From: a virus
Virus record (IMG/VR): IMGVR_UViG_3300039344_000030
Coordinates: 1-48,380 of that record
Reading direction: 5' to 3' (one strand)
Length of the DNA stretch: 48,380 nucleotides
In this document: positions 1 through 48,380 of the stretch, in pieces
How positions within the stretch are numbered: position 1 is the first letter of the stretch
Layout: each line of letters opens with the position of its first letter
Notes under the pieces: model-generated
Told to the model about the DNA's origin: nothing
What the model saw: only the letters and a program-made list of their open reading frames with translations
Database searches by the model: none
Position numbers and translations under genes: made by a program

Positions 1-99
1 GAAACAGATTGCAAACAACTTGTGCAAGCAGAGGGGAATCGACATCAATGAAGCATATGCACAGTTTGAGCAACAGTTTTCTGGAATGATGGGAAAACA
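1..99. repeat. Terminal direct repeat, exact copy of 48282..48380. Either a circular-assembly overlap or a short terminal redundancy.
   Basis: 99/99 nt identical to the last 99 nt of the window. The repeat lies inside an ORF that continues across the junction. Confidence 0.95.
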
Positions 100-124
100 A
101 AACAATCATGGTATAAACCGATAA
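2..124 (+). CDS. 3' part of a small junction-spanning ORF that starts at 48190. Hypothetical helical protein of about 71 aa.
   Basis: The frame continues from 48190..48380 through the repeat to TAA 122-124. Peptide ends ...QIANNLCKQRGIDINEAYAQFEQQFSGMMGKQNNHGINR. Confidence 0.6.
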   Translation, partial: KQIANNLCKQRGIDINEAYAQFEQQFSGMMGKQNNHGINR

Positions 125-164
125 TGGTTTATATAAATAAAATAATTTAAAGGAGGTACATACT

Positions 165-881
165 ATGGGTATGGACGGAAGCGGTTTAAGTGTAGCAGAT
201 GCTCTGGCATTACAGAGAGATGGCTATGACAACGATGGCATGTTTGGTGGTAATGGTTCTTGGGTGTTCTTCCTGTTTTTCCTGCTCGCTTGGGGAGGCG
301 GTGGCTTCGGATGGGGCAATCGTGGTGGAGAACAGGTTGCAACAAGCGCAGAGGTGCAGAGAGGATTTGACAACCAGAATGTTATGAACAAATTGAATGG
401 TCTGGAAAATGGTCTTTGCGATGGATTCTATGCACAGAACACAACAATGCTGAATGGTTTCAATGGCGTACAGCGTGACCTTTGTTCTGGATTCGCAGGA
501 GTAAATGCGGCAATCAACCAGAGCAGATTTGATGCCCAGCAGTGTTGCTGTGAAACAAACAGAAACATTGACAGTGCGAAGTTCCAGTTAAGTCAGTGTT
601 GCTGTGACATCATGCAGAACAATGACAGAAACACACAGAGAATCATCGACCACATGACACAGAACGAAGTTCAGACGTTGCGTGACCAGTTACAGACAGC
701 GAACTTCCAGTTATCACAGCAGGCGCAGAGCGCAAACATTATCGGTCAGTTAAGACCGACACCAACACCTGCATATCTGACCTGTTCTCCGTATGAATCT
801 AACATCTACGCAAGTAGAGGATTCTATGGAAACGGATGGTTCAACAATGGATGTTACAACAATGGTTGTGGATGTTGCTAA
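165..881 (+). CDS. Cys/Gly/Asn/Gln-rich single-pass membrane protein, unknown function
   Basis: SD AAAGGAGG 8 nt upstream. TM segment WVFFLFFLLAW flanked by G-rich runs. Duplicated QCCC(E/D) motif, duplicated FQLSQ, C-terminal GCYNNGCGCC. Confidence 0.75.
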   Translation: MGMDGSGLSVADALALQRDGYDNDGMFGGNGSWVFFLFFLLAWGGGGFGWGNRGGEQVATSAEVQRGFDNQNVMNKLNGLENGLCDGFYAQNTTMLNGFNGVQRDLCSGFAGVNAAINQSRFDAQQCCCETNRNIDSAKFQLSQCCCDIMQNNDRNTQRIIDHMTQNEVQTLRDQLQTANFQLSQQAQSANIIGQLRPTPTPAYLTCSPYESNIYASRGFYGNGWFNNGCYNNGCGCC

Positions 882-912
882 GTAAACAATCCGCTGTATA
901 GCGTGAGTTATG

Positions 913-940
913 GGGCGGTTAATCACCGCCCTTTTGTTTT
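913..940 (+). terminator. Rho-independent terminator
   Basis: GGGCGGT-loop-ACCGCCC followed by TTTTGTTTT. Confidence 0.75.
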
Positions 941-964
941 GATTAAGCAAAGGAGGATAAAAAC

Positions 965-1354
965 ATGGCTTGTAGTTTATACAATAACAATGGTTTTGGT
1001 TGTGGAGGATGTGAGCATTTTGTTCGGACAAACAGCGTAACACTTGTAGATTCTGTTTTGGTTCTGAACATTCCGCAGAAAACGTACAGTAACAAAGAAA
1101 AGGTTTGTATCTGTGTTGCACAGGCGTTACCGAATATAACATCTGCACAGACGGTAGCAATCACAATCGGAACTGGAACAACACAGTATCCGTTAAGAAC
1201 AAAGTGCGGAAACAATGTTTATGCAGACCAAATTCGTAGCAGAAGGGTATATCATACCAATGTGGCAACAGATACCGCTTCTTTTGTTGTTCCTGCTTGT
1301 GAACTGTGCAAAACGGGCTTTAATTTCCCTACAATCCCTGCAACGACAGCGTAG
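965..1354 (+). CDS. Hypothetical protein with Cys-Gly-rich N-terminus (FGCGGCEH)
   Basis: SD AAAGGAGG then ATG. 129-aa ORF immediately after the terminator. Confidence 0.65.
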   Translation: MACSLYNNNGFGCGGCEHFVRTNSVTLVDSVLVLNIPQKTYSNKEKVCICVAQALPNITSAQTVAITIGTGTTQYPLRTKCGNNVYADQIRSRRVYHTNVATDTASFVVPACELCKTGFNFPTIPATTA

Positions 1355-1363
1355 GTGTTTAAC

Positions 1364-1585
1364 GTGGGTAACGACAATGGATGGTTTAATCAACGGACTT
1401 TAGACGCAATGGCTTTTATCGGGTTTATGATAGGTTTGCAAACTATGAGGAAAACCTGTCCCAAAGTGATGTACAGGACATGATAAAAGGGGGCATTGCG
1501 AGATGTACATGAACATCTGGAAGAACAGGACAATAAGATAGACCATATCATAGAATTGTTGGAAGGAGGGAAAGAGAATGCTTGA
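1364..1585 (+). pseudogene. Coding-like stretch split over three frame segments: 1364-1438 (frame 2), 1438-1500 (frame 1), 1496-1585 (frame 2). Possibly a disrupted small membrane/coiled-coil gene.
   Basis: GTG 1364 follows AGGTG. The segments read VGNDNGWFNQRTLDAMAFIGFMIGL / ANYEENLSQSDVQDMIKG / RDVHEHLEEQDNKIDHIIELLEGGKENA. The second junction is at a G5 run (1489-1493). Confidence 0.3.
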
Positions 1586-2171
1586 CAAAGAACAGTTGAA
1601 AGAGTTATCATGTATGGAGATATATGCAGAGATAGACAAACACATGACAGCGGCTCTGATGTTTCATTCTGGAATGAGCGACTATTTTAACTTTATCGGT
1701 TTGCATGGGTTCAAGAGAGTACATGAATTACAGTATTATGAGGAATCCATCGGAAAGCGGAAGTTGCACAAAAAGGTGTTGGATATTCATAACAAATTGA
1801 TACCGATAAAAGGACATGAAAAACCAGAGGTAATTCCGAAGGAATGGTACAATCATACCAGAATGGATATTGACGACAGTGTGCTGACAAAGTTTGTTCG
1901 CTCTGCCATGAAACAATACAAAGAGTGGGAAGAGGAAACAAAGAAGTTTTATGAAGCGGTGTGTTGTGTGTTCTATGAAAAGGGGTGGCTCATTGATTAC
2001 AATTTGATGATGTGTTACCTTGAAGATGTGCAACATGAACTCAAAAAGATTTACAGAATGTGTGAGGAACTCAATGGAACAGGGTATGATGTTCTGTACA
2101 TTGTGGAGATACAGAAGAAAATCCATGAAGAGTACAAAGAGAAAATGAAGAAGTTGAAAGTGCAGAAATAA
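1578..2171 (+). CDS. Four-helix-bundle, ferritin-like protein (putative)
   Basis: SD GGAAGGAGGG. Ferritin-like spacing: GLHGFKRVHELQYYEE...KLHKKVL and DYNLMMCYLEDVQHELKKIY. Confidence 0.45.
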   Translation: MLDKEQLKELSCMEIYAEIDKHMTAALMFHSGMSDYFNFIGLHGFKRVHELQYYEESIGKRKLHKKVLDIHNKLIPIKGHEKPEVIPKEWYNHTRMDIDDSVLTKFVRSAMKQYKEWEEETKKFYEAVCCVFYEKGWLIDYNLMMCYLEDVQHELKKIYRMCEELNGTGYDVLYIVEIQKKIHEEYKEKMKKLKVQK

Positions 2172-2217
2172 AACAAGAGTGTGAGAACATGAAAAGAACA
2201 AAACAAAGAACATGAAA

Positions 2218-2258
2218 TAGGCTTACTTGTAATTGTTACAGGTAGGCTTATTTTTTTT
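2218..2258 (+). terminator. Strong rho-independent terminator closing the late/accessory transcription unit
   Basis: About 15-bp stem (TAGGCTTACTTGTAA / TTACAGGTAGGCTTA, a few G-U pairs) followed by T8. Confidence 0.85.
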
Positions 2259-3073: not shown

Positions 3074-3102
3074 TTGACAATGTGGTATGTCGGTAGTATA
3101 AT
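3074..3102 (+). promoter_or_regulatory. Sigma-A-type promoter
   Basis: TTGACA-17-TATAAT. Confidence 0.7.
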
Positions 3103-3151: not shown

Positions 3152-3850
3152 ATGAACAAAACATTTGAAGAAATGACAGTGAAGGAGTTAAGGGAAGAGA
3201 GCAGAAAGCGTGGGCTTACGTTGGAGAGTAAAGGACATAAGTTCACAAAACCAGAGTTAATCGAGAGACTTACAAAGTGGGATGCAGAACAGGCTGATAT
3301 TGATGCAGACATTAAGAAAGCAATTGAAGAAGCAGGGCAGGAAACTCTGGTAGACCCCGAAGGTGACGAAGCATGGGGTGATGCAGAGTGTGAGAAGGTG
3401 GAGACTTGTGCAGAGTGTGAACATGCTCCTTGTGAGAACACACCAAAGGTTGAAACAAAAGAAGATGGTTACATTGTGTATGCAAAAACACTGGAAGAAA
3501 TCGAGCAGAAGTATGGAAACAGAAAGAAACAGGAAATCTATGACAACGAGTTAAAGGTTGGCAGTTATGTTGTGTTTGTCCATTATGTGGAGGCGAGAAA
3601 CGGACAGATTTACAAGAAGTTAAGAACAGCGAAGGTTGTGGGAATCAACAGAAAGAAAGAACTTGTCAGAATTGTTACTCTGTTAGGAACAGAGAAAGAA
3701 CTTTCCTTTGATGAATTACTTTACATTAAGGGAAGTGCGAAGAATTGTTCCTACCCGAAGGACATTGCAATGTATCTGAAAGAACAGAGAACAGAGAAAG
3801 GCAAGGTGCTTATCAATGAAAGATTTGCAGAAAACAATGTTGCTGATTAA
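3152..3850 (+). CDS. SAP/HeH-domain DNA-binding protein
   Basis: N-terminal MTVKELREESRKRGLTLE..KPELIERL (SAP / Rho-N-like helix-extended-helix). SD AAAGGAG. Confidence 0.6.
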   Translation: MNKTFEEMTVKELREESRKRGLTLESKGHKFTKPELIERLTKWDAEQADIDADIKKAIEEAGQETLVDPEGDEAWGDAECEKVETCAECEHAPCENTPKVETKEDGYIVYAKTLEEIEQKYGNRKKQEIYDNELKVGSYVVFVHYVEARNGQIYKKLRTAKVVGINRKKELVRIVTLLGTEKELSFDELLYIKGSAKNCSYPKDIAMYLKEQRTEKGKVLINERFAENNVAD

Positions 3851-6627: not shown

Positions 6628-9354
6628 GTGGGTAATTATTTTGATTTACACAGACATGACGAAACTTCTTTCTTTGATGGATTCGGAAAACCAATTGAAT
6701 TAGCGAGAAGGGCAAAGGAATTGGGATATACAGCATTAGGGTTGAGCAATCATGGAAACATAACAGGATTGGTGCAACACTGGTTGGCGTGTAAGGAGGT
6801 AGGAATCAAACCAATATTAGGGTGTGAAGTTTATTTCCAACCAAAGTTTAACAAAAAGAATCCACAGAGAAAGTCTTACCATTTGTGTTTGTTTGCACAA
6901 AACAAAACAGGATATGAAAACTTGTGTCACATTATGACAGAAGCAAATGTAGAACAATTCTATTACAAACCAATTGTTGATTTTGGGTTATTGGAGAAGT
7001 ATGCAGATGGGTTGATATGTTCTACTGCTTGTATTGCATCAGCAACAAGCCAAGCGATTGTGAATGGTAATGTTGAAACAGCAGGAAAATTGCTTGACAA
7101 GTTCAAGGATATTTTTGGCAACAACCTGTATGTGGAGATTCAGCCATACAAGATTGACAAAAAGGGAACACAACAGAAAACAGATTATGTTTTGATGAAG
7201 TTAGCAATGGAACGGAAAATCAAGTGTATACTAACATCAGACAGTCATTTTGGAAGTAAGGAAGATTTTGACACCTATTGTAAGATGCACGAAATCGGGA
7301 AAACAACACTTGATGTAAAGAACACATATTCAGAAAGGTATATGCCTAGCGAGTATGAAATAGAAGAACGATTTGCAACAATCTACAAGAACAAGTTTAA
7401 GGATGCCTTTAAGGTTGCAGAAATGTTCGTTGACAATTTAAAGAAGTTACAGGATAGCGTGGAAGAAGATATACTTTCGCAATGTGAGTTGGTTCTGCCA
7501 AAGATTGAAACAAATGGAGAATCAAGCGAAACAGTGTTGCGTAAGATGGTACAAAGAGGATTGAAGAAGCGAGGGAAGAACACAAAACAGTACATACAGA
7601 GGTGTAAACAGGAACTTGATGTGATACATTATCATGGGTTCGATGATTATTTCCTCATGGTGCAAGACTATGTAAATTGGGCGAGAGAACATAACATAGC
7701 AGTTGGACCGGGGAGAGGTTCTGCTTGCAATTGTTTGGTTGCGTATGCAATCGGGATAACGGATGTTGACAGCATTAAGTACAAACTTGATTTTAGCCGA
7801 TTTATGAGGAAGGAAAAAAAGAAGTTACCAGACATAGACGTTGATTTTGAAACAGATAGACGACAAGATGTGATTGACTATGTTGTGAACAAGTATAAGG
7901 GGCAAGCAGTACAGATATGTTCTTATGGGGAATATAAGATTGACAACCTTGTGAATGACCTTGCAGGGGTATGTGGGTTGCCTACAAGCGGAAAGGAATT
8001 AGACGAGTACGACAAGGAACAAAACAAAAAGGTAGTTGCAGAAATCAAACGATTTATACGAGAGTATGAAGAGGACGGAAGATTGAATATGCAGTTACTC
8101 ATGGAGGATGAAAGAACAGAAGAGTATAACAGTCAGTATGATAAAATTATGAAACACTTTTCCAAGCTGTTTGGGAAAATTCGATACTTAGGAAAACATG
8201 CCGCAGGTGTGGCAGTGGTTGGTTCTGATATATCGAATTATACAGCGGTGATTCGCAAGGGTGATATGTTCAGCAGTAGTTATGACCTTAACGATTTGGA
8301 ACATATCAATTGTACAAAGTTCGATATGTTAGGACTTAAAACAATGTCAGAGTTGCGAGAGTTGGAAGAGTATACACATCATGTTGTTACAGACGAAGAT
8401 AGAGAGGAACAAGAAATATATGATAGTTTCCGAGATGGGAAAACAGACGGTATATTTCAGATGGAGAAATCAGCACCAAAGAAGATTCTGGACATGATAC
8501 AGTGTGATTGCATTGAAGATGTAATTGCGGTTAATGCGCTGAACAGACCAGCACCGTTACAATTAAAGATGCACGAAACATACGCATATAACAAACTGTC
8601 TGGAAATGTAGACAGAAGTACACCGTACTATAAGTATACGAAAGAAACATACGGAACGATGTTGTACCAAGAACAGACGGTTGAGGTTGCACAGAAATTG
8701 GGGCATCTGACACCACAGCAAAGTTTTGATTTGCTAAAGATTATGAAAAAGGCAGAGAATCAGAACAAACCAGAGTATATACCAATCATTGAACAGATGA
8801 AGAAAGACTTTTTCAAAGGTTGTAGAAGTGAAGGACTTACGAAGGAACAGGCAACAGAGATTTGGGCGAGTATGCTTATCTATGGTTTCAACAAAGGACA
8901 TAGCACAGGGTATACGATTATCAGCGTAGACCAGATGTGGTATAAGATACACCATCCTGCTGAGTTCTGGTATGTCAAAATGAAGTATGCAGGGAATGAT
9001 GCTGATTTACACAAGTATTCACAGTTTGCGGTAAAGGACAATGCGGTTGTAATGTTACCTCATGTGAATTATACAGCAGAAACAAGTATGCGTATGATGG
9101 ATGGAGAAAATGTTATACAGCAGGGGTTGAGCATTATTAAGGGAATTGGAGAAAAAGCGGCAGAAGCAATCGAACATGAAAGAAAGGAACATGGAGTGTT
9201 CCGAGACTATGATGATTTTTACGACAGGTGCAAAGGAAGAACAGTAACAACAAGAGTGATTGACATTTTAAAGGAACAGGGAGCATTGGAGTTTAACAAG
9301 CGGCGTTACCTGTCAAGGGTGGTAAAATATAATAGCAGTTTGTTGGGACGTTAA
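6628..9354 (+). CDS. dnaE: DNA polymerase III alpha-type replicative polymerase (PHP domain plus pol core), compact 908 aa
   Basis: N-terminal PHP motif DLHRHDETSFFDG...LSNHGN. DnaE-like GPGRGSACNCLVAYAIGIT, DIDVDF, HAAGV. GTG start after GGAAGGAG. Confidence 0.85.
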   Translation: MGNYFDLHRHDETSFFDGFGKPIELARRAKELGYTALGLSNHGNITGLVQHWLACKEVGIKPILGCEVYFQPKFNKKNPQRKSYHLCLFAQNKTGYENLCHIMTEANVEQFYYKPIVDFGLLEKYADGLICSTACIASATSQAIVNGNVETAGKLLDKFKDIFGNNLYVEIQPYKIDKKGTQQKTDYVLMKLAMERKIKCILTSDSHFGSKEDFDTYCKMHEIGKTTLDVKNTYSERYMPSEYEIEERFATIYKNKFKDAFKVAEMFVDNLKKLQDSVEEDILSQCELVLPKIETNGESSETVLRKMVQRGLKKRGKNTKQYIQRCKQELDVIHYHGFDDYFLMVQDYVNWAREHNIAVGPGRGSACNCLVAYAIGITDVDSIKYKLDFSRFMRKEKKKLPDIDVDFETDRRQDVIDYVVNKYKGQAVQICSYGEYKIDNLVNDLAGVCGLPTSGKELDEYDKEQNKKVVAEIKRFIREYEEDGRLNMQLLMEDERTEEYNSQYDKIMKHFSKLFGKIRYLGKHAAGVAVVGSDISNYTAVIRKGDMFSSSYDLNDLEHINCTKFDMLGLKTMSELRELEEYTHHVVTDEDREEQEIYDSFRDGKTDGIFQMEKSAPKKILDMIQCDCIEDVIAVNALNRPAPLQLKMHETYAYNKLSGNVDRSTPYYKYTKETYGTMLYQEQTVEVAQKLGHLTPQQSFDLLKIMKKAENQNKPEYIPIIEQMKKDFFKGCRSEGLTKEQATEIWASMLIYGFNKGHSTGYTIISVDQMWYKIHHPAEFWYVKMKYAGNDADLHKYSQFAVKDNAVVMLPHVNYTAETSMRMMDGENVIQQGLSIIKGIGEKAAEAIEHERKEHGVFRDYDDFYDRCKGRTVTTRVIDILKEQGALEFNKRRYLSRVVKYNSSLLGR

Positions 9355-28763: not shown

Positions 28764-28770
28764 ATGATAA

Positions 28771-28831
28771 ACAAAACAGATAAGGTTCGGCGTACATCAG
28801 ATTATGTACATTTGCCACTTATCTGTTTTGT
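28771..28831 (+). promoter_or_regulatory. 5'-terminal leader stem-loop of the terL mRNA
   Basis: Perfect 14-bp helix ACAAAACAGATAAG / CTTATCTGTTTTGT enclosing a 6-bp hairpin GTACAT/ATGTAC. Begins at about the predicted +1. Confidence 0.6.
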
Positions 28832-28859
28832 GCATATTAAAACAAAGGAGCAAACAAAC

Positions 28860-30218
28860 ATGGATGTGAACATTGAAGTGTCAAACAGATTTGCTTCTTT
28901 TCTAACCGATTGGGATTATGAACAATACCTGTTATTGGGTGGGTATGGTAGCGGAAAGAGTTACCATGTAGCATTGAAGATTATACTAAAACTTCTGGAA
29001 GAAAAACGAACAGCATTGGTGGTAAGACAAGTGCGTGAAACAATCAAAGAATCTTGTTTCGCATTGTTTAAAGAAATCCTTGACAAGATGGGTTTGTTAT
29101 CAGATGAAGCGGTAAGGAACAATCACAGACCAAAAGGGGACAAAGTGGTTGCGATTTCTAGTCCTTTGGAAATCCGTTTTCCGAATGGTTCAAGAATCAT
29201 ATTCCGAGGAATGGATAATACGGAGAAAATTAAGTCCATTCACGGTGTCAGCATTGTTTGGATGGAAGAATGTAGCGAAATCCGTTATGAAGCATATACC
29301 GAGTTGCTAGGGCGTATCAGAGAGCCTAAAGTGACGTTGCATTTTATCTTAACAACAAATCCTGTCGGCAAGGAAAATTGGGTATACAATACTTTTTTTG
29401 TGCATACAGATGATAAAGGAAGAGAGAGAACAATACAAAGTCCAGAAGAGTTTTACAGACGTAGAACATTGGTGAACAAAAAGAATGGTGTTTATTATCA
29501 TCACAGCCTACCAGATGATAACCCATTCCTGCCTGTTTCGTACATTCGCCGTCTGGATGGATTGAAGAGAACAGACAAACAATTGTGGGTTGTTGCAAGG
29601 TGGGGAAGGTTTGGAGCGAATGGAACAAGGGTACTTCCGAACTTTGTTGTTGCGAAGGACAGCAGAGAGTTCAAACGGAAGGTGAACAGTATTTCTGCAC
29701 AATTTCATTTCTTCGGACTTGACTTTGGTTTTGAAGAGAGTTACAATGCGCTTATCAGTTGTTGTGTTGATGATGCAAACAAAGTGCTGTACATTTATGA
29801 TGAAGTGTACATGAATCAGATAACAGATGATAGATTCTCACAGAGACAAGATGTTCGTGCAGTAGCGGAGAGGGCAGGAAGGTGTGAGAAGCCAATCTGT
29901 GCAGATTCAGCAGAACCTAAAACAATTCAGTTTTACAGACAGCAAGGGTACAACATGTATGGAGCGAAAAAGTACATTGGAAGTCGTTTACAGAACACAA
30001 AGAAGATGAAACGATTTAACAAGATAGTTTGTTCCCCTAGATGTAAGAACACAATCCGAGAGTTGAAAGACCTTACATATAAGAGGGATTCAAGGGGTAA
30101 TGCAATCTATGATGAATTTAACATTGACCCGCATACATTTTCTGCATTGTGGTATGCGTTGGACACATATACCGTTGCAGATGTGAAGGAGATTAAAACA
30201 AACAGTAAAGCAGGATAA
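28860..30218 (+). CDS. terL: Terminase large subunit
   Basis: Walker A LLLGGYGSGKS, Walker B-like VWMEEC, C-terminal nuclease region. ATG 28860 after AAAGGAG. The track start 28764 lies in the -10 box. Confidence 0.85.
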   Translation: MDVNIEVSNRFASFLTDWDYEQYLLLGGYGSGKSYHVALKIILKLLEEKRTALVVRQVRETIKESCFALFKEILDKMGLLSDEAVRNNHRPKGDKVVAISSPLEIRFPNGSRIIFRGMDNTEKIKSIHGVSIVWMEECSEIRYEAYTELLGRIREPKVTLHFILTTNPVGKENWVYNTFFVHTDDKGRERTIQSPEEFYRRRTLVNKKNGVYYHHSLPDDNPFLPVSYIRRLDGLKRTDKQLWVVARWGRFGANGTRVLPNFVVAKDSREFKRKVNSISAQFHFFGLDFGFEESYNALISCCVDDANKVLYIYDEVYMNQITDDRFSQRQDVRAVAERAGRCEKPICADSAEPKTIQFYRQQGYNMYGAKKYIGSRLQNTKKMKRFNKIVCSPRCKNTIRELKDLTYKRDSRGNAIYDEFNIDPHTFSALWYALDTYTVADVKEIKTNSKAG

Positions 30219-30502: not shown

Positions 30503-30817
30503 GTGCAAGAAATATTGCTAGATACATACACAATAGCATTGCCCATCATACTTGGCTATATAGTCTGGTTATTAAAACAAACAAACAAAAAGAGAGATGC
30601 AAACACAAGGGGAACAATGTTGTTGTTAAGGGTTCAATTAATAGAATACCATGACAAGTATTGTGCTATGGGAATCATACCATCGTATGCCTACCAAAAT
30701 TTTTGTGAAATGTTTGAAGCATACAGAGCGTTGGGTGGGAATGGAATGATTTTAAAGATGAAAAAGGAAGTCGACGAATTGGAAATAAGAAAGAAAGGAT
30801 ATGAACACGATGTTTAA
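30503..30817 (+). CDS. Membrane protein in the lysis cassette (holin-associated?)
   Basis: GTG 8 nt after TAGGAGGT. N-terminal TM segment IALPIILGYIVWLL. Confidence 0.55.
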   Translation: MQEILLDTYTIALPIILGYIVWLLKQTNKKRDANTRGTMLLLRVQLIEYHDKYCAMGIIPSYAYQNFCEMFEAYRALGGNGMILKMKKEVDELEIRKKGYEHDV

Positions 30818-31040
30818 AAACAATGTATTTAATGTATCAGTAGATACAAAAAAGTGGTTGAAGAAAGCGGTAGTAAGAGCAGTTAAAACAATGGCACAGA
30901 CTTTTGTTGCAACAGTTGGAACGGCTACTGTTATGGGTGCAGTAGATTGGAAGATGGTACTTTCTGCTTCTGTTTTGGCTGGTATTCTTTCCATAGCAAC
31001 CAGTGTTGCAGGAATACCAGAAGTTGAAGCAGAAGAGTAG
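30810..31040 (+). CDS. Holin (phi-LC3 / holin_1-like)
   Basis: ...KKAVVRAVKTMAQTFVATVGTA...VDWKMVLSASVLAGILSIATSVAGIPE. An alternative in-frame ATG lies at 30801. Confidence 0.65.
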   Translation: MFKNNVFNVSVDTKKWLKKAVVRAVKTMAQTFVATVGTATVMGAVDWKMVLSASVLAGILSIATSVAGIPEVEAEE

Positions 31041-31069
31041 AACAAACAAAACAAGGAGGAACAAAACAA

Positions 31070-32257
31070 ATGGCACATTTATATGTGATTGCAGGACATG
31101 GTGCAGGGGATTCTGGTGCAGTTGGGAATGGATATACCGAGGCAGAAAGGGTTCGTGCATTGGCAAGTAAAATCAAACAGTTAGGGGGAGACAATGTTAC
31201 ACTTGGGGATATGAACAGAAATTATTATGCGGACAATGGCATTAGTTCTCTGAACATTCCGAAAGATTGGTGTATCATTGAGTTGCACATGGACAGTAAT
31301 CCGTCTGCAAGTCCGAGGGGCGGTCATGTGATTATCAAGGGAACATTTAGTCCAGATTCACATGACCTTGCGCTCGCTAGTTTTGTTAGTGCAATGTTCC
31401 CCGGAAGGGCAAACAGTATTATTGGAAGAAACGACCTTGCAAACCCGAATAGGGCGGCGGCAAAGGGATATAATTACAGATTGGTAGAATTTGGTTTTAT
31501 TTCAAATGCAACGGATGTATCAATCTTTAATAGCAATCTGGATGCGATTGCGAGGGGTGTTCTGTCATGTTTCGGAATCAATACGAACAAAGAAAAATGG
31601 GTGCTTGACAATGTTGGTTGGTGGTATCAGAGAGCAGACGGAAGTTATCCAAAATCACAGTGGCTTCTGTTGGATTGCTATTACTATTTCAATGACAAAG
31701 GATATGCACTTGCAAATGAGTGGTTAAGTTATGGCGGCAATTGGTATTGGCTGAAAGATGATTGCAGGATGGCGACAGGATGGCAGTACATTGACAAACA
31801 TTGGTATTATCTGAATCCGACAGGGACAAAGAACAAACCAGTTGGTGCAATGTTGGATGGCTGGCAGTTCATCAATGGACAATGGTACTATCTTAGAACA
31901 AAAGCAGATGGAGAACATCCGCATGGTTCGATGGTTGAAGGTTCTGTCACAGTTGGAGAATATGACTATTATTGCAGAGAAGCAGGAACAGACAAGAACT
32001 ATCCGACAGGCAGTATGTTGATGGGATGGAGAAAGGTAACAGAAACAGCAGAAGATGAAACAAAGAAAACAAAATGGTTCTGGTATAACAAAGACAGCAA
32101 TTGTCAGCCTATCGGAAGTATGTTAAAGAATCATTGGATTACAACATCAAATGGCAAAAAGTATTATTTAAAAGATGATGGTGTTATGGCTTGTGATGAA
32201 ACAATGACAATCAGCGGAAAAGAATACACATTCGATGCAAGCGGAGCATTGGTATAA
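31070..32257 (+). CDS. Endolysin: N-acetylmuramoyl-L-alanine amidase plus C-terminal cell-wall-binding repeats
   Basis: VIAGHGAGDSGAVGNGYTEAE...IELHMDS amidase motifs. Aromatic repeats GWWYQ/NWYWL/HWYYL/GQWYYL/KYYL. Confidence 0.85.
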   Translation: MAHLYVIAGHGAGDSGAVGNGYTEAERVRALASKIKQLGGDNVTLGDMNRNYYADNGISSLNIPKDWCIIELHMDSNPSASPRGGHVIIKGTFSPDSHDLALASFVSAMFPGRANSIIGRNDLANPNRAAAKGYNYRLVEFGFISNATDVSIFNSNLDAIARGVLSCFGINTNKEKWVLDNVGWWYQRADGSYPKSQWLLLDCYYYFNDKGYALANEWLSYGGNWYWLKDDCRMATGWQYIDKHWYYLNPTGTKNKPVGAMLDGWQFINGQWYYLRTKADGEHPHGSMVEGSVTVGEYDYYCREAGTDKNYPTGSMLMGWRKVTETAEDETKKTKWFWYNKDSNCQPIGSMLKNHWITTSNGKKYYLKDDGVMACDETMTISGKEYTFDASGALV

Positions 32258-32345: not shown

Positions 32346-33932
32346 TTGGCAGAGAAGAAACAGTACAATGTTGAAGTGACAAGGGCGTTGGCAAGTTTCC
32401 CCTATTTTGTGTTAAAGAATGAGGTTACAACAGGCTACAATCTATATACTAAAGAATTGTTGGAAATCAAACAAAACTATCTGGACTATAAAAAGGGTGC
32501 AGAGTTCTACACAGAGGGTAGCAGTGGAGATTATCAACCGTCAAACATTCGGTTCAAGATTGCGAAAACATTGATTGACAAAGAAGCGAGATTCATGTTT
32601 TCACAGACACCAGATGTAACAATACAATCTGTTGATACAAACGAAGAACAGATGAAACAGGTGGAACAGTACCAGACATTGATTGACAAAGTTTTGAAGG
32701 ACAAAAAGAACAATTTTTCAAGGACATTGTTACAGAGTGCAAAAGATTGTTTTATTGGGAAGCGTGTTGCATGTCTTGTGGATTTTTCCGAAGAGGATGG
32801 CATACAGACACATTTCTATAACAGTTTACAGTTCTATTATGAAACAGAGTATGGCTCTGACAGGTTGACGAAGTTTATCAGTTTTGAAAATGTGAATCAA
32901 ACAAAATCAACACAGCAGAGGTTGTATCTTGTAAACAGGTATGAGGAAAGGGACGGAACAATTTATATGAGTTCTATCCTTTATAATGGAACTGGAAAGG
33001 AACAGGAACAGGTTATACCAGAACAGGAAATTGAGTTAGATTACATTCCTGCGGTTGTGATTATCAATGATGGAACATTAGAGGACAAAAGAGGTGTTTC
33101 GGAGATTGAGAGCCTTACAGAATATGAATCTGGTTACAGCAGACTAGGGAATGGAGATATTGACAGTGAGCGTAAGGGAATGAACCCAATCCGTTATACT
33201 GTGGATATGAACTCACAGACAACAAAGAATCTTAGTTCTGGTGCTGGTGCTTATTGGGATTTGAAATCAGAACAAAACCAGAACAATGTTTCGCCACAGG
33301 TGGGAACACTAGCACCGAGTATGAATCATACAGAACCAGTGAAGGTTACGCTTGACCGATTGAAAACAACCATGTACAATGAAATTGATATGCCAAACAT
33401 ATCAGAAGAAACAATGGCAGGAACAATCACAAGCGGAAAGGCATTGAAAGCGTTATATTATCCGTTACAGGTTCGGTGTGATGAAAAACTAAAGGCGTGG
33501 AAACCTGCGATAGAGTTTATTGCAGAAGCAATCATTGACCTTGCTGTGTTAAACAAAGCAGAAGTGATTTCCATGTATGTTCTTACAAGTCTGGATGAAG
33601 TACAGTACAACATTGAAGTGATGGAGAATTATGCACTTGCAGAAGATGAAGAAGAAGAGAAGAACTCAGACCTTGCGGAGATTGCGGCAAATGCACGAAG
33701 CAGGAAGTCTTACATTAAGAAGTGGAGACGGTCAGAGTTCAAAACAGATGCACAGATTGATGAAGAGTTGATGCAGATAGCAATTGAAAACAATATGTTT
33801 GATTCTATGAGTATGAACACACAGGTACAGACAGAATTGAGCAGACGTGGAGTATCTGAAAAGGTTGACGACAATCTGGAAGTGATTGACACACAGAAAA
33901 CATTGGAAGAAACACAAGCAATTGAAGAATAG
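32346..33932 (+). CDS. Portal protein (SPP1 gp6-like)
   Basis: 528 aa, placed before the head-morphogenesis gene. TTG start after AAAGGAGGG. Acidic C-terminus. Confidence 0.75.
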   Translation: MAEKKQYNVEVTRALASFPYFVLKNEVTTGYNLYTKELLEIKQNYLDYKKGAEFYTEGSSGDYQPSNIRFKIAKTLIDKEARFMFSQTPDVTIQSVDTNEEQMKQVEQYQTLIDKVLKDKKNNFSRTLLQSAKDCFIGKRVACLVDFSEEDGIQTHFYNSLQFYYETEYGSDRLTKFISFENVNQTKSTQQRLYLVNRYEERDGTIYMSSILYNGTGKEQEQVIPEQEIELDYIPAVVIINDGTLEDKRGVSEIESLTEYESGYSRLGNGDIDSERKGMNPIRYTVDMNSQTTKNLSSGAGAYWDLKSEQNQNNVSPQVGTLAPSMNHTEPVKVTLDRLKTTMYNEIDMPNISEETMAGTITSGKALKALYYPLQVRCDEKLKAWKPAIEFIAEAIIDLAVLNKAEVISMYVLTSLDEVQYNIEVMENYALAEDEEEEKNSDLAEIAANARSRKSYIKKWRRSEFKTDAQIDEELMQIAIENNMFDSMSMNTQVQTELSRRGVSEKVDDNLEVIDTQKTLEETQAIEE

Positions 33933-46165: not shown

Positions 46166-47275
46166 ATGGCAGAGAAAAGCGGATTTTTTAATGCAAGGGA
46201 AACAGAAGAAGGGATATACGACAGGGAGTATGATGCAGAACAGTTCGCAGAGTATTTTGCAAATTTTGTTTCTAATGGCGTGTATGTGAACCCAGCAAAC
46301 CAATTGAAAGTTGTGTTTAATAATTCACCAGACAAACCATTTGTTGTGGTTGTTCGGAAGGGAAAGGCATACATAGATGGGTACTGGTATGAACTGACCG
46401 AGGATATGGAGGTTACAATCCCTGCAAACACAAAAGCATACATTGTAAAAGATGTTATTTGTTGTACTCTGGATAAGACAGAACGAAAGGTTAGTATCAT
46501 TCTGAAAGAAGATGTAACAAGTGATATGCCTGTAAACAATAACACACAGCACGATTTAGTTCTATCGACAGTTCTGGTACAGCCAAATGCGCCAAAGTTG
46601 AACGCAGAGGACATTACAGATAAAAGACCAGACAAGACATATTGTGGTTTTGTTACAGGATTGATAGACCAGATAGACACTACGGAGTTGTTCCAACAGT
46701 ATGATGATGCTTTTCAAGAGTGGTTCAATGAAATGAAAGGTCAGTTGACAGAGGATGCGGCAGGAAATCTCCAAACACAGATAGGAAATCTGTTAGACCT
46801 TAAAACAAATAACAAAACAAGTCTTGTTGCGGCAATTAACGAAGTGATTATGAACGCAACACATCCGATTGGTTCTGTGTATTTAAGTTTTGACCCAACA
46901 GACCCGTCTGAGTTGTTCGGGGGAACATGGGAGGGAATCACAGGAACAGCAAGTGCAAATAGTGACCCTAGATTCTTGTATGTTACGAATCCAAACAGTC
47001 CTGCTCTTATTGAAGCAGGAACAGAGGGAGGTTCTGCAAAGAAGAAACTTACATTAGCAAATATGCCTAGACATAATCACTATGTATTGGATTCGCAAGG
47101 TAGACAAATGGATTTGTATAAAACAAATGCTGGTGCTGGTGCTTATTGGGATTTGGCAAGTTACAATTCAGTTCAATCTCCAAATAACATACATACGGAT
47201 TCTGTCGGAAGTGGAACAGAGTTTGATATATTACCACCATATACAGTTGTCTATGGATGGAAAAGAGTTGCATAA
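46166..47275 (+). CDS. Tail fibre / receptor-binding protein with C-terminal tail-collar-like domain
   Basis: IGSVYLSFDPTDPSELFGGTWEGI ... LTLANMPRHNHY resembles the collar-domain motif. Last gene of the structural operon. Confidence 0.6.
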   Translation: MAEKSGFFNARETEEGIYDREYDAEQFAEYFANFVSNGVYVNPANQLKVVFNNSPDKPFVVVVRKGKAYIDGYWYELTEDMEVTIPANTKAYIVKDVICCTLDKTERKVSIILKEDVTSDMPVNNNTQHDLVLSTVLVQPNAPKLNAEDITDKRPDKTYCGFVTGLIDQIDTTELFQQYDDAFQEWFNEMKGQLTEDAAGNLQTQIGNLLDLKTNNKTSLVAAINEVIMNATHPIGSVYLSFDPTDPSELFGGTWEGITGTASANSDPRFLYVTNPNSPALIEAGTEGGSAKKKLTLANMPRHNHYVLDSQGRQMDLYKTNAGAGAYWDLASYNSVQSPNNIHTDSVGSGTEFDILPPYTVVYGWKRVA

Positions 47276-47339: not shown

Positions 47340-47519
47340 ATGCAAAGCGAGTTTGAGAATCTTCTGTTAGATACGCAGAAGGAATACAGTCGTTCTAACA
47401 GGATGAAAGACAAAATCATAATTGTGCTGATTGCGCTTATGTTCCTTGAAGCAGTGATTGGATATTGTGGTTGCATTACAAGGAACAGAAAACGATGGCA
47501 TTTATCGCAGACGAATTAG
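47340..47519 (+). CDS. Small membrane protein (59 aa)
   Basis: SD AAAGGAGG, ATG 47340. TM segment IIIVLIALMFLEAVIGY. Below the track cutoff. Confidence 0.5.
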   Translation: MQSEFENLLLDTQKEYSRSNRMKDKIIIVLIALMFLEAVIGYCGCITRNRKRWHLSQTN

Positions 47520-47587
47520 GAATGTCGGAGATAACAGTTAAAAAGAAGCACAGTAAAATGCTGATGAAGATTGGCAAAATGTTTTAA
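47450..47587 (+). CDS. Sigma-70 region-4 / RinA-ArpU-like HTH segment: a gene fragment, a -1 frameshift product or a mini-ORF (ATG 47495)
   Basis: The -1 frame is open from 47450 and reads DWILWLHYKEQKTMAFIADELGMSEITVKKKHSKMLMKIGKMF*, overlapping the end of the 47340 ORF. Confidence 0.35.
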   Translation, partial: SSDWILWLHYKEQKTMAFIADELGMSEITVKKKHSKMLMKIGKMF

Positions 47588-47593
47588 GAATTG

Positions 47594-47617
47594 GGAGCGT
47601 GAAAACGCTCCTTTTTT
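47594..47617 (+). terminator. Rho-independent terminator
   Basis: GGAGCGT-GAAA-ACGCTCC + TTTTTT. Confidence 0.85.
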
Positions 47618-47657
47618 ATTGCAATTCTTTAGAGATACTTAACGTATACTTTTCTTA

Positions 47658-47692
47658 TATTTCATAAGTTTTACCCAATATATAATAGAATC
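47658..47692 (+). promoter_or_regulatory. Promoter-like element with a consensus -10/discriminator but no good -35
   Basis: TATAAT (47681) plus AGAATCA is identical to other phage promoters. The -35 position reads TATTTC. Confidence 0.4.
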
Positions 47693-47738
47693 ATAACAAG
47701 CAAGGAAGTACCAGAAAATCAGAAGGAGGAAAACGAGA

Positions 47739-48227
47739 ATGTATGGGAATTATAATACAGGCTATGGAATGTCACCATACCAACAGCAGTTAGCACAGAA
47801 TAGGCTGAACCAGATGGAGCAACAGTACAATGGTGTTGGAACATATCAGCCAAACAATTATCAGATGCAGAACAATCAGCAGATGGGAACAATGCAGATT
47901 TTAAAAGGTAGACCAGTATCAAGTTATGATGAAGCGAAAGCGAGTATGATAGACCTAGATGGTAGTTTGTTTGTTTTCACAGATATTGCAAACAATTGTA
48001 TCTACACAAAACAGATACTATTGGATGGTTCTGCTGAATTGAAAACCTATGTATTACAGGAACAGAAACAAGGTGAAACAAAACGAGAGAATGGAAACAA
48101 AACACAGCAGTATGTGTTACGAGAAGATTTTGAAAGAATCGTTGGAGATTTAAACAGACAGATTGAAGGATTGAAGGAGGTTATGCCTTATGATGCAACA
48201 GATGGTAAACCAAATGTTAAAAAGTAA
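47739..48227 (+). CDS. Protein with a Q/N-rich (prion-like composition) N-terminus, unknown function
   Basis: SD GAAGGAGGA. N-terminal 55 aa is dominated by Q/N/Y/G/M. Then LKGRPVSSYDEAKASMIDLDGSLFVFTD.... Confidence 0.7.
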   Translation: MYGNYNTGYGMSPYQQQLAQNRLNQMEQQYNGVGTYQPNNYQMQNNQQMGTMQILKGRPVSSYDEAKASMIDLDGSLFVFTDIANNCIYTKQILLDGSAELKTYVLQEQKQGETKRENGNKTQQYVLREDFERIVGDLNRQIEGLKEVMPYDATDGKPNVKK

Positions 48228-48380
48228 CCCATTGTTTCAGAGAGCGCAACAGATGGCGCAAGGGAAATCAGAAGAAGAATTGAAACAGATTGCAAACAAC
48301 TTGTGCAAGCAGAGGGGAATCGACATCAATGAAGCATATGCACAGTTTGAGCAACAGTTTTCTGGAATGATGGGAAAACA
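48190..48380 (+). CDS. 5' part of the junction-spanning small ORF (continues at 100..124)
   Basis: ATGATG start overlaps the end of the preceding gene. Reads MMQQMVNQMLKSNPLFQRAQQMAQGKSEEELKQIANN... and runs off the window end in frame. Confidence 0.6.
   Translation, partial: MMQQMVNQMLKSNPLFQRAQQMAQGKSEEELKQIANNLCKQRGIDINEAYAQFEQQFSGMMGK
48282..48380. repeat. Terminal direct repeat, copy of 1..99
   Basis: Exact 99-nt identity with the window start. Confidence 0.95.

Follow-up and report, generated by a model that had tools for sequence, protein, structure and literature searches.

The six genes that lie between two terminators around the ends of the 48,380-nt window (the whole stretch analysed, IMG/VR record IMGVR_UViG_3300039344_000030) are real and belong to a very widespread, ordered and uncharacterised gene module of gut phages. 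Its conserved core comprises four genes, g1 to g4, whose predicted products resemble a membrane-anchored, cysteine-rich stalk with a knob-like partner. None of the products matches a family of known function in Pfam, NCBIfam, PADLOC or the PDB. The observation made in the sequence-only reading, that a co-oriented block of odd-composition genes sits between strong terminators downstream of the tail-fibre gene, was confirmed, whereas its interpretation was only partly supported.

Organisation of the cassette in the window

All features of the cassette and its flanks described here are on the plus strand. The first and last 99 nt of the window are duplicates (1–99 repeats 48282–48380), hence this is an assembly overlap, missed in the sequence-only reading, and the true genome length is 48,281 bp. 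The unit begins after an intrinsic terminator at 47593–47620 (found at 47593–47612 by the terminator scan), which closes the tail-fibre/regulator unit and keeps its stem through compensatory substitutions in the relatives L044 and L045. It is followed by a leader and promoter region (47621–47738), approximately 90% conserved between the window, L044 and L045, with a -10-like TATAAT at 47681–47686 that is unique in the window, no good -35 element and a strong SD sequence before g1. At the other end a strong intrinsic terminator (2214–2262, scanned at 2214–2254) closes the cassette and an early promoter, TTGACG-17-TAAGAT, follows at 2280–2308.

Immediately upstream, 47340–47587 is a remnant of two genes, joined by a deletion of about 413 bp at 47472/47473 which the sequence-only reading had also missed. 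Alignment to the 98% identical relative L049, in which both genes are intact, showed that the 5′ part derives from a 94-aa TM-protein gene and the 3′ 40 codons from a 122-aa Sigma70_r4 regulator gene (Pfam Sigma70_r4, E = 4e-8 for the L044 homologue). Small sigma-r4-like HTH genes precede the cassette in many unrelated loci.

The first core gene, g1 (47739–48227), encodes a protein with a Q/N/Y/G/M-rich disordered N-terminus (21 of the first 52 residues are Q or N), a small beta-alpha-beta-beta-beta domain at residues 52–108 (AF2 pLDDT about 90) and a C-terminal helix. It belongs to phrog_21718 and has 3,615 homologues, none of them named, and its model showed no significant PDB fold match. 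The second, g2, runs from 48190 to 48380 and continues at 100–124 with its last eight codons and the stop; it encodes a 71-aa Met/Gln/Asn-rich helical protein, has its own AAGGAGG ribosome-binding site and overlaps the end of g1. Homologues of g2 were found in loci L001–L003 and 25 further loci.

The hallmark gene, g3 (165–881, phrog_16490), encodes an acidic N-tail, a W/G-flanked hydrophobic segment at residues 33–51 (WVFFLFFLLAW flanked by Gly runs), a coiled coil of about 130 residues (approximately 74–205) built from 11-residue repeats (periodicity z = 3.6) with Cys in one fixed register, an RPxPxPAY motif and a Gly/Tyr/Asn/Cys-rich tail. It carries QQCCC and SQCCC, 13 Cys and 31 Gly, and the motifs GLCDGFYAQNT and CCC are invariant in the family. 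A GC-rich hairpin with a T-run, the third feature missed in the sequence-only reading, lies between g3 and g4 (912–942) and is an internal terminator, attenuator or RNA-end element. It is conserved with compensatory changes as far as Dulem virus 36 and C. perfringens phage XP41-N3, and was found after g3 in 49 of 73 loci, compared with 0 of 73 after g1 and 0 of 58 after position 4.

The fourth gene, g4 (965–1354), encodes a Cys-rich N-terminal peptide (...NNNGFGCGGC) followed by a predicted eight-stranded beta-sandwich (AF2 pLDDT 81.6, pTM 0.75). Neither its profile nor its model matched the PDB, however, BFVD returned small phage proteins (E = 1e-10), a fusion of DUF7841 with a g4-like domain, and C-terminal knobs of collagen-like and tail-fibre proteins (E = 1e-4 to 1e-2).

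The g5 gene (1364–1585) is indeed frame-disrupted, as the sequence-only reading stated. Compared with L049 and the cultured phage CS266P3, both with an intact gene for a 73-aa protein with a hydrophobic helix and a coiled coil, it has a 1-nt deletion at about 1436 and a 1-nt insertion at about 1493, the only frame-breaking indels in 8.2 kb of aligned sequence. The gene is absent altogether in L044 and L045. The last gene, g6 (1578–2171, phrog_17879), is ferritin-like at the level of fold and superfamily, with phmmer giving E = 2.5e-3 over residues 18–181 and a family profile E = 1.5e-5 against archaeal and bacterial ferritins (3kx9, 1s3q), covering helices A-B and C-D, although Pfam Ferritin (PF00210) does not score. 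In the g6 alignment H30 and the helix C and D glutamates (E118, E154) are invariant, but the helix A Glu position is A, G or E and the His position of the helix B ExxH motif is G, D, H, N, V or G, hence the EExxH ferroxidase motif of true ferritins is not conserved and iron storage or oxidation is doubtful. An extra insertion of about 25 residues is present, and some homologues carry R/Y-rich tails.

The five intact genes showed dN/dS of 0.04–0.09 against L044 (g1, 0.09; g3, 0.08; g4, 0.07; g6, 0.04), similar to primase at 0.05. A separate lysis cassette was confirmed, with holin-like genes at 30503–31040 and an amidase at 31070–32257.

Distribution and synteny of the module

The g3 family has more than 7,700 homologues, 2,641 representatives at 50% identity, and occurs on at least 565 IMG/VR contigs. 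Whether the genes travel together had been proposed as a test of the block, and for g1–g4 the outcome was strongly positive, with the same genes in the same order in Dulem virus 36, in C. perfringens phages, in 38 genome loci and in 79 IMG/VR loci. In the latter 79 the order g1–(g2|c7)–g3–(g4|c5) is nearly invariant, where c7 and c5 are gene families that take the positions of g2 and g4, c5 doing so in most loci. The g1 gene was present in 77 of 79 loci and g2 or c7 in 73. A variable fifth gene follows, either c9, DUF7841 or g5–g6. The window has all four core genes in the canonical order, but g5 and g6 are lineage-specific additions (g6 in six of 79 loci) and not part of the conserved core.

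Neither does the cassette occupy the slot of the lysis genes in their place, as was first suggested. In many relatives it sits directly downstream of holin and endolysin, as the last module before the prophage or contig end, and in locus L036 it lies between the tail/lysis genes and attR. In this lineage and in Dulem virus 36 it directly follows the receptor-binding protein gene, in crAss-like cr53_1 it is next to holin and a LysB-like gene, and in C. perfringens and Bacteroides phages it lies among early or recombination genes, far from the structural genes. The g3 family and DUF7841 occur in Crassvirales and a Bacteroides uniformis phage, as well as in bins from Negativicutes, Bacteroidales and Methanomassiliicoccales-associated viruses, although many carriers are assigned to Clostridia. 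All annotated carriers come from gut or faecal, anaerobic sources.

The cultured relatives CS266P1–4, whose host is Clostridium_AP sp000509125 (labelled Clostridium, taken as monoderm), form plaques and lyse their host but lack g1–g4, hence these genes are dispensable for plaque growth. Such natural cassette-minus isolates can be compared with cassette-plus relatives, and cultured carriers exist in C. perfringens and B. uniformis, among them C. perfringens phages XP41-N3 and 17DYC and Bacteroides phage C3_41T2LP.

Possible roles of the module

Our preferred reading, held tentatively, is that the block is one partly decayed copy of a widespread gut-phage accessory operon that builds a membrane-anchored stalk-and-knob assembly. 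What the analysis establishes is a transcription unit of its own, with a terminator on each side, a conserved -10-only leader and, in intact relatives, a small sigma-70-region-4 regulator gene directly upstream; a conserved hairpin dividing it into g1–g3 and g4 onward; the architecture of g3; the nearest structural neighbours of the predicted g4 fold; the absence of a signal peptide from every product; and the absence of g1–g4 from plaque-forming relatives. The remainder is inferred from sequence and predicted structure, with no experiment or homologue of known function supporting any functional step. In this view, g3 oligomerises, probably as a trimer, into a stalk anchored in the cytoplasmic membrane by its N-terminal segment, stacked Cys layers staple the chains through disulfides or bound metal, and g4 caps or binds the Cys-rich distal tail. 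The low-complexity, coiled-coil proteins g1 and g2 would act as assembly adaptors or chaperones for the hydrophobic, aggregation-prone g3, g1–g3 would be made in excess over g4, and g5 and g6 (elsewhere c9 or DUF7841) would be exchangeable helical accessory subunits. The assembly may change the envelope or membrane of the infected or lysogenic cell, with superinfection exclusion, adhesion or control of late infection events as possible roles, helping in the gut but not on a plate; it would not be lysis proper, iron storage or essential virion morphogenesis.

Two fusions accord with this reading, the DUF7841 fusion described above and a TM-less fusion of the g3 C-domain to a tail-fibre-like shaft that is still followed by DUF7841. 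The profile of c5, the positional alternative to g4, is BclA/ExsF (TNF/C1q)-like, which also fits a knob-like partner, although its PDB matches are marginal (E = 1.8e-4 to 0.5). The terminal, att-proximal position in prophages is the classic slot for accessory or conversion genes such as P22 gtrABC and lambda bor/lom, with which the cassette shares its own promoter and terminators, a predicted membrane protein and dispensability for lytic growth. It differs, however, in being an ordered module of four to seven genes conserved across very distant phages and also kept by apparently virulent ones, far broader than any known conversion cassette. Against this reading, the flank-charge bias of the g3 segment is weak and does not resolve topology, and if the stalk faces outward g4 would need export despite having no signal peptide. 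Hosts with very different envelopes (monoderm, diderm and possibly archaeal) argue against an envelope-specific target and fit a virion-borne or phage-intrinsic role equally well. With the regulator truncated and g5 broken, the copy in this window may also be poorly expressed or decaying. The label of a phage-host interaction module given in the sequence-only reading remains a hypothesis, although its statement that no product is a recognisable virion, lysis or replication function was supported; PADLOC-DB 2.0 likewise gave only chance-level hits (E = 0.005–0.007) for 10 proteins of the module.

A more speculative and rather unlikely extension is that g1–g4 form a previously undescribed class of supramolecular structure specific to viruses of gut anaerobes, shared from Clostridia siphophages to Crassvirales. 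This would be a membrane-anchored hendecad coiled-coil fibre, capped by a TNF/C1q-like head, whose Cys layers become cross-linked or load metal when the reduced cytoplasm is opened to the outside. It would act outside the classic infection steps, for example turning lysed-cell membranes or virions into adhesive, oxidation-hardened particles, or serving as a universal exclusion or decoy device. Most gut-virome genes are “dark matter”, and this module is a large, sharply defined piece of it, with four to seven genes keeping their order in thousands of phages under strong purifying selection. These phages infect hosts from Clostridia to Bacteroides and are among the most abundant human gut viruses. 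If the module mediates exclusion, adhesion or redox-triggered cross-linking it would be a new general strategy of phages in anaerobic gut communities, and would matter for phage isolation bias and the design of therapeutic phages.

Alternative explanations

The best-surviving alternative, although less likely, is a non-essential accessory fibre or decoration of the virion, with g3 as shaft and g4 or c5 as distal knob, assembled in the cytoplasm with g1 and g2 as chaperones and carried on the head or tail for adhesion to mucus or glycans, or for secondary receptor binding in the gut. Trimeric fibres such as phage tail-fibre or collagen-like proteins, reovirus sigma1 and adenovirus fibre likewise combine a coiled-coil or repeat shaft with a distal beta-sandwich knob, and the length of the g3 shaft varies in units of one repeat. 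The g3 C-domain fusion, the position after the receptor-binding protein gene, the lack of signal peptides, the independence from host envelope type and tail morphotype, the depositors’ remote-homology labels (“viral fiber/spike”) and dispensability in vitro, as for decoration proteins, all fit this idea. However, the conserved hydrophobic segment of g3, in place of a virion-attachment domain, has no obvious place in a lipid-free tailed virion, the knob is a separate gene, and the cassette is a separately regulated unit, placed behind the lysis genes or often far from the structural genes. No similarity to any solved virion protein was found in the PDB, including the crAss001 atlas.

Control of lysis timing is unlikely. 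Here g3 would be a class-III-holin-like or antiholin-like protein, with one N-terminal TM segment and a large Cys-containing C-terminal domain as in T4 holin T, which works with the antiholins RI/RIII, and its partners would modulate when the membrane is permeabilised. The architecture may also parallel the i-spanin Rz of the lambda Rz/Rz1 pair, in that g3 has a hydrophobic N-terminal segment and a coiled coil, albeit with unresolved topology and a different repeat type (hendecad) and length. The glycine-zipper-like hydrophobic segment, the proximity to lysis genes in several loci, and the loss from plaque-isolated phages, which would fit selection for rapid lysis, favour this idea. Yet the window has its own holin-like genes next to the amidase, CS266P phages lyse without g1–g4, no similarity to holin, antiholin or spanin families was found in Pfam or PHROGs (g3 and g5 gave no holin hit), no product has a signal peptide or lipobox as expected of an o-spanin, and monoderm carriers have no outer membrane. 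A four-gene core with a knob-like beta-sandwich is not explained.

Metal or redox chemistry, one analogy drawn in the sequence-only reading, is unlikely. Thiol-rich g3 and g4 with ferritin-like g6 would bind metals or buffer oxidants in the strictly anaerobic host, and Cys layers in a fixed register could form thiolate metal sites, but the ferroxidase ligands are not conserved in g6, no redox-enzyme family was detected, and g6 is present in only six of 79 loci and replaced elsewhere by the unrelated c9 or DUF7841, hence metal chemistry cannot be the core function.

The other analogy, to spore-coat or exosporium proteins, here taken to mean that the products mimic these and are deposited on the host forespore or interfere with sporulation, is very unlikely as the module also occurs in phages of non-sporulating hosts, no coat or exosporium family scored in Pfam, and no cassette protein has collagen-like GXX repeats or an exosporium-targeting motif. 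Its support is a fold-level echo in c5, whose profile hit 9h38 (E = 1.8e-4), BclA (0.09–0.5) and ExsF (0.3–1) only marginally; g4 itself does not match BclA by sequence, and g4 and c5 are not demonstrably homologous (hhalign probability below 1%). In the exosporium nap of the Bacillus cereus group (BclA fibre on ExsFA/BxpB, with a Cys-rich ExsY/CotY basal layer) the stalk is collagen, whereas here it is a predicted alpha-helical hendecad coiled coil with stalk and head as separate polypeptides. The compositions nevertheless echo GerQ and ExsY-type proteins, and the nap similarly combines a stalk and TNF/C1q-like head with Cys-rich, cross-linkable partners, assembled in a cytoplasm without signal peptides on a membrane-bounded surface and released by cell lysis.

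Organisation of the cassette and the adjacent genes

The window is a complete, circularly permuted phage genome, in which the first 99 bases (1-99) exactly repeat the last 99 (48282-48380). This terminal direct repeat is an assembly overlap of a circular or permuted genome, hence the true length is 48,281 bp, and reading through the repeat would add 33 spurious residues to g2. Essentially all genes are on the + strand, in the order replication genes (primase, DNA polymerase III alpha, RecA-like), terminase, two holin-like genes and an amidase, portal, capsid, tail, tape measure, Dit, Tal and a receptor-binding fibre (46166-47275). The lysis cassette (30503-32257) encodes a 104-aa and a 79-aa holin-like protein and a 395-aa amidase with cell-wall-binding repeats, and its location between the large terminase (28764-30218) and the portal (32346-33932) is unusual. 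Rfam and tRNA scans of the window returned no RNA genes.

The cassette lies between the fibre and the early genes, with one terminator at 47593-47612 and another at 2214-2254. Between them are g1 (47739-48227), g2 (48190-48380 plus 100-124, 71 aa once the overlap is removed), g3 (165-881), g4 (965-1354), g5 (1364-1585) and g6 (1578-2171). The block of genes described by the sequence-only reading is real, and every statement it made on composition was confirmed. Its statement that g5 is frame-disrupted was also correct; relative to the 98%-identical relative L049 and the isolate CS266P3, g5 carries a 1-nt deletion at about 1436 and a 1-nt insertion at about 1493. These are the only frame-breaking indels in 8.2 kb, and sequencing error was rejected as an explanation because no other coding frameshift occurs in that stretch. 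A further 3-nt in-frame insertion relative to L049 was observed at position 302, within the Gly run of g3 that flanks the hydrophobic anchor, and the length of this Gly run varies across the family. The intact genes are functional genes rather than noise; dN/dS against the diverged relative L044 was 0.09 for g1, 0.08 for g2, 0.08 for g3, 0.07 for g4 and 0.04 for g6, compared to 0.05 for primase, and all have consensus Shine-Dalgarno sites.

Immediately upstream of the cassette, a deletion of about 413 bp at 47472/47473 (compare L049 3800-4220) removes the 3′ end of a 94-aa TM-protein gene and the 5′ two-thirds of a 122-aa Sigma70_r4 regulator gene, fusing the start of the former to the last 40 codons of the latter. 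The junction shows ATTG microhomology. A small sigma-70-region-4 or related HTH gene precedes the cassette in many unrelated loci; of 46 small upstream ORFs, eight hit PF04545 and others hit DUF1492, antiterminator Q or UPF0122. The cassette leader is conserved and carries a TATAAT but no -35 element, which fits activator dependence. A search for the leader motif elsewhere in the window found no further copy. Downstream, an extended -10 promoter (2280-2308) lies right after the cassette terminator, and a perfect sigma-70 consensus promoter (TTGACA-17-TATAAT, 3074-3102) lies upstream of the SAP-domain gene at 3152; these mark the start of the early region.

A GC-rich hairpin with a T-rich tail follows g3 (912-942). 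It is maintained by compensatory substitutions across very distant phages, including Dulem virus 36 and the C. perfringens phage, and was located in the loci L001 (about 6745-6800) and L002 (about 6640-6690). The hairpin was present after g3 in 49 of 73 IMG/VR loci, but was never found after g1 (0 of 73) or after the position-4 gene (0 of 58). The simplest reading is attenuation or transcript stabilisation by an element, probably an attenuator or transcript-end element, which sets subunit ratios, so that g1-g3 would outnumber g4 and the later genes, however this is an inference.

Distribution and genomic setting of the module

None of the cassette products hit a Pfam or NCBIfam family, and PHROGs placed g1, g3 and g6 in the unknown-function families 21718, 16490 and 17879. 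Searches of Pfam, NCBIfam, PHROGs and PADLOC with all six products and five associated families returned only unknown-function PHROGs, DUF7841 and Sigma70_r4. The cassette is one copy of a very large conserved module. The g3 family has more than 7,700 homologues in the 90%-identity clustered database and 2,641 representatives at 50% identity (1,411 at E ≤ 1e-10), and occurs on at least 565 IMG/VR contigs, as detected with a 12-sequence alignment; g1 has 3,615 homologues.

Whether the genes travel together outside this genome had been set as a test of the sequence-only reading, and g1-g4 do. The same six genes in the same order occur in Dulem virus 36 and in C. perfringens phages XP41-N3 and 17DYC, at 24–67% identity. 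We further examined 38 loci from species-representative genomes and 79 IMG/VR loci, in which the order g1-(g2 or c7)-g3-(g4 or c5) is almost invariant, where c7 and c5 are the families that occupy the positions of g2 and g4, respectively. In the IMG/VR set, g1 was present in 77 of 79 loci, g2 or c7 in 73 of 79 and g4 or c5 in 75 of 79. One of several helical proteins follows, namely c9, DUF7841 (c11) or g5-g6, and sometimes a Cys/His/Asp-containing protein, c3, precedes the block. g6 is therefore a minority add-on, present in 6 of 79 loci. The gene types at positions 2 and 5 co-vary, c7 occurring with c9, and g2 with DUF7841 or g6. In profile-profile comparisons of positional alternatives (g2/c7, g4/c5, g6/c11, g6/c9 and others), only g2/c7 was weakly positive for homology, at 36% probability.

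The g3 family, usually next to DUF7841, extends to Crassvirales, where depositors labelled it “spike protein/glycoprotein” or “viral fiber” on the basis of remote matches, to the cultured Bacteroides uniformis phage C3_41T2LP and to viruses assigned to Methanomassiliicoccales. All annotated records come from faeces, gut or sewage. In the crAss-like cr53_1 (locus L043, NC_055889 38965-42765), the genes around the g3 homologue contain in-frame TAG codons under table 11, which points to stop-codon recoding. Here the g3 homologue is flanked by a holin, a LysB/FtsL-like protein and a DUF7841 protein that the depositors labelled “sigma factor/ubiquitin-like”.

The sequence-only reading placed the block in the slot normally held by lysis genes, however the module is not a substitute for them. 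In several loci it lies directly behind holin and endolysin, and in the prophage L036 the order is holins, endolysin, sigma-4-like gene, c3-g1-c7-g3-g4-c9-c12, tRNA-derived att site, then host V-ATPase genes. g3 lies within 3 kb of the downstream contig end in 22 of 79 loci, against 10 of 79 for the upstream end. In C. perfringens and Bacteroides phages the module lies among early or recombination genes.

Sequence features and predicted structures of the module proteins

The g3 protein has an acidic N-tail with almost no Lys or Arg, followed by a conserved W/G-flanked hydrophobic segment whose flank charges favour an N-out orientation only weakly. Residues about 74-205 lie in an 11-residue register, with hydrophobic autocorrelation peaks at 4, 7, 11, 18, 22 and 29. 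The g3 of the window gave z = 3.6, with 0 of 500 shuffles reaching the observed value, and 30 of 33 sequences in the family gave z > 2. G[FY] motifs recur every 11 residues, and repeat number changes by exact multiples of 11. Cys is concentrated in register 0 and, through the CCC motif, in registers 9, 10 and 0. Nearly invariant motifs are GLCDGFYAQNT, CCC-x-T-x-R-x-ID, SQxAQ, RPxPxPAY and a terminal GCGC. This pattern describes a hendecad coiled-coil stalk with stacked Cys layers, as predicted from sequence.

PDB sequence and profile searches with g1, g3, g4, g6, c3 and c5 returned matches only for g6 (ferritin) and, weakly, for c5 (BclA/ExsF). The AF2 model of g4 is a confident eight-stranded β-sandwich (pLDDT 81.6), for which Foldseek found no significant match in the PDB. 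In BFVD, it matches small proteins of uncultured phages (E = 1e-10), a DUF7841 fusion protein and the C-terminal knobs of collagen-like, hyaluronidase and tail-fibre proteins (E = 1e-4 to 1e-2). The commoner occupant of position 4, c5, is not detectably homologous to g4; its profile hits 9h38 (E = 1.8e-4), five BclA entries and ExsF-type exosporium proteins at marginal E-values. The g1 protein has a disordered Q/N-rich head, a small β-α-β-β-β domain (pLDDT about 90) and a C-terminal helix, again with no significant fold match in the PDB, whilst the possibility that g2 is an STI1-like chaperone domain found no support in Pfam.

The g6 protein is ferritin-like (phmmer E = 2.5e-3, profile E = 1.5e-5), however the helix A Glu and the helix B ExxH ligands are not conserved, and H30, E118 and E154 are invariant. 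The fifth-position proteins (c9 and c11 in L026, L032, L029 and L042, and the g6 homologues in L001 and L005) often carry long Arg/Gly/Tyr/Asp/Ser-rich disordered stretches and similar R/Y-rich C-terminal tails (for example ...YRRRRIGF, ...SRTGRYI and, in crAss gp67, ...VRYVRY), which may be a shared docking motif. An encapsulin-style cargo peptide was considered for the tails seen on some g6 and DUF7841 homologues, but the g6 of the window lacks such a tail.

The associated protein c3 (phrog_3754, about 125 aa, upstream of g1 in L022, L024, L027, L036, L040-L042 and others) has invariant Asn10, Asp20-Cys21, Arg24, His97 and Asp108. The pattern resembles a Cys-His-Asp catalytic triad, hence c3 may be a papain-like or C39-like peptidase or a transglutaminase-like enzyme, however this reading found no support in Pfam or the PDB, and c3 is absent from the window.

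A natural fusion was detected on a single short contig (L130 263-1936, Logan ERR13998745), for which a chimeric assembly is not excluded. The 557-aa protein, P0450, lacks the hydrophobic segment and carries the g3 C-domain behind about 300 aa of unknown N-terminal domains and a tail-fibre-like coiled coil. It is still followed by a small gene of 80 aa and a DUF7841 gene.

Natural loss of the cassette and its putative function

The closest cultured phages are CS266P1-4, isolated from sewage on Clostridium_AP sp000509125 DA266, which are 94–96% identical to the window over the structural region. They differ by one replacement between 46785, inside the fibre gene, and 1211, inside g4 (compared against CS266P3, L004 4807-5655). 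They carry a different C-terminal (receptor-binding) part of the fibre, no g1-g3 and only the last 49 codons of g4, whilst g5 and g6 are intact. A host-range module swap is thus coupled to loss of the cassette. g1-g4 are therefore dispensable for plaque formation, and lysis does not depend on them.

The analysis itself establishes an autonomous, regulated, strongly conserved but dispensable operon, whose hallmark protein combines a membrane-type segment with a predicted oligomeric coiled-coil stalk and whose fourth gene encodes a predicted knob-type β-sandwich. Everything beyond this is inferred from sequence, synteny and predicted structure alone. Our tentative interpretation is that the module builds a membrane-anchored stalk-and-knob assembly, stapled through its Cys layers, in which g1 and g2 would act as low-complexity assembly factors and g5 and g6 as exchangeable accessories. 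The assembly may act at the envelope of the infected or lysogenic cell, in exclusion, adhesion or control late in infection.

The main rival, which we consider less likely, is a non-essential virion fibre or decoration. This better explains the absence of signal peptides, the independence from host envelope type and the P0450 fusion, but explains less well the conserved hydrophobic anchor and the non-structural gene neighbourhoods. A role in lysis timing is unlikely, and metal or redox handling, one of the analogies drawn in the sequence-only reading, slightly more so. A spore-directed role, suggested by the spore-coat/exosporium analogy of that reading, is very unlikely. The earlier interpretation is partly supported.

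The component families are catalogued only as unknown PHROGs and a DUF, and searches of the accessible literature for CS266P1, phrog_16490, DUF7841, the carrier phages and BclA-like phage proteins found no description of the module. No known system, whether defence, lysis, virion or conversion, shares the gene set. We consider the module to lie outside known kinds of system, although its eventual function may still fall into a familiar class. The copy in the window is slightly decayed, with a truncated regulator and g5 as a pseudogene.
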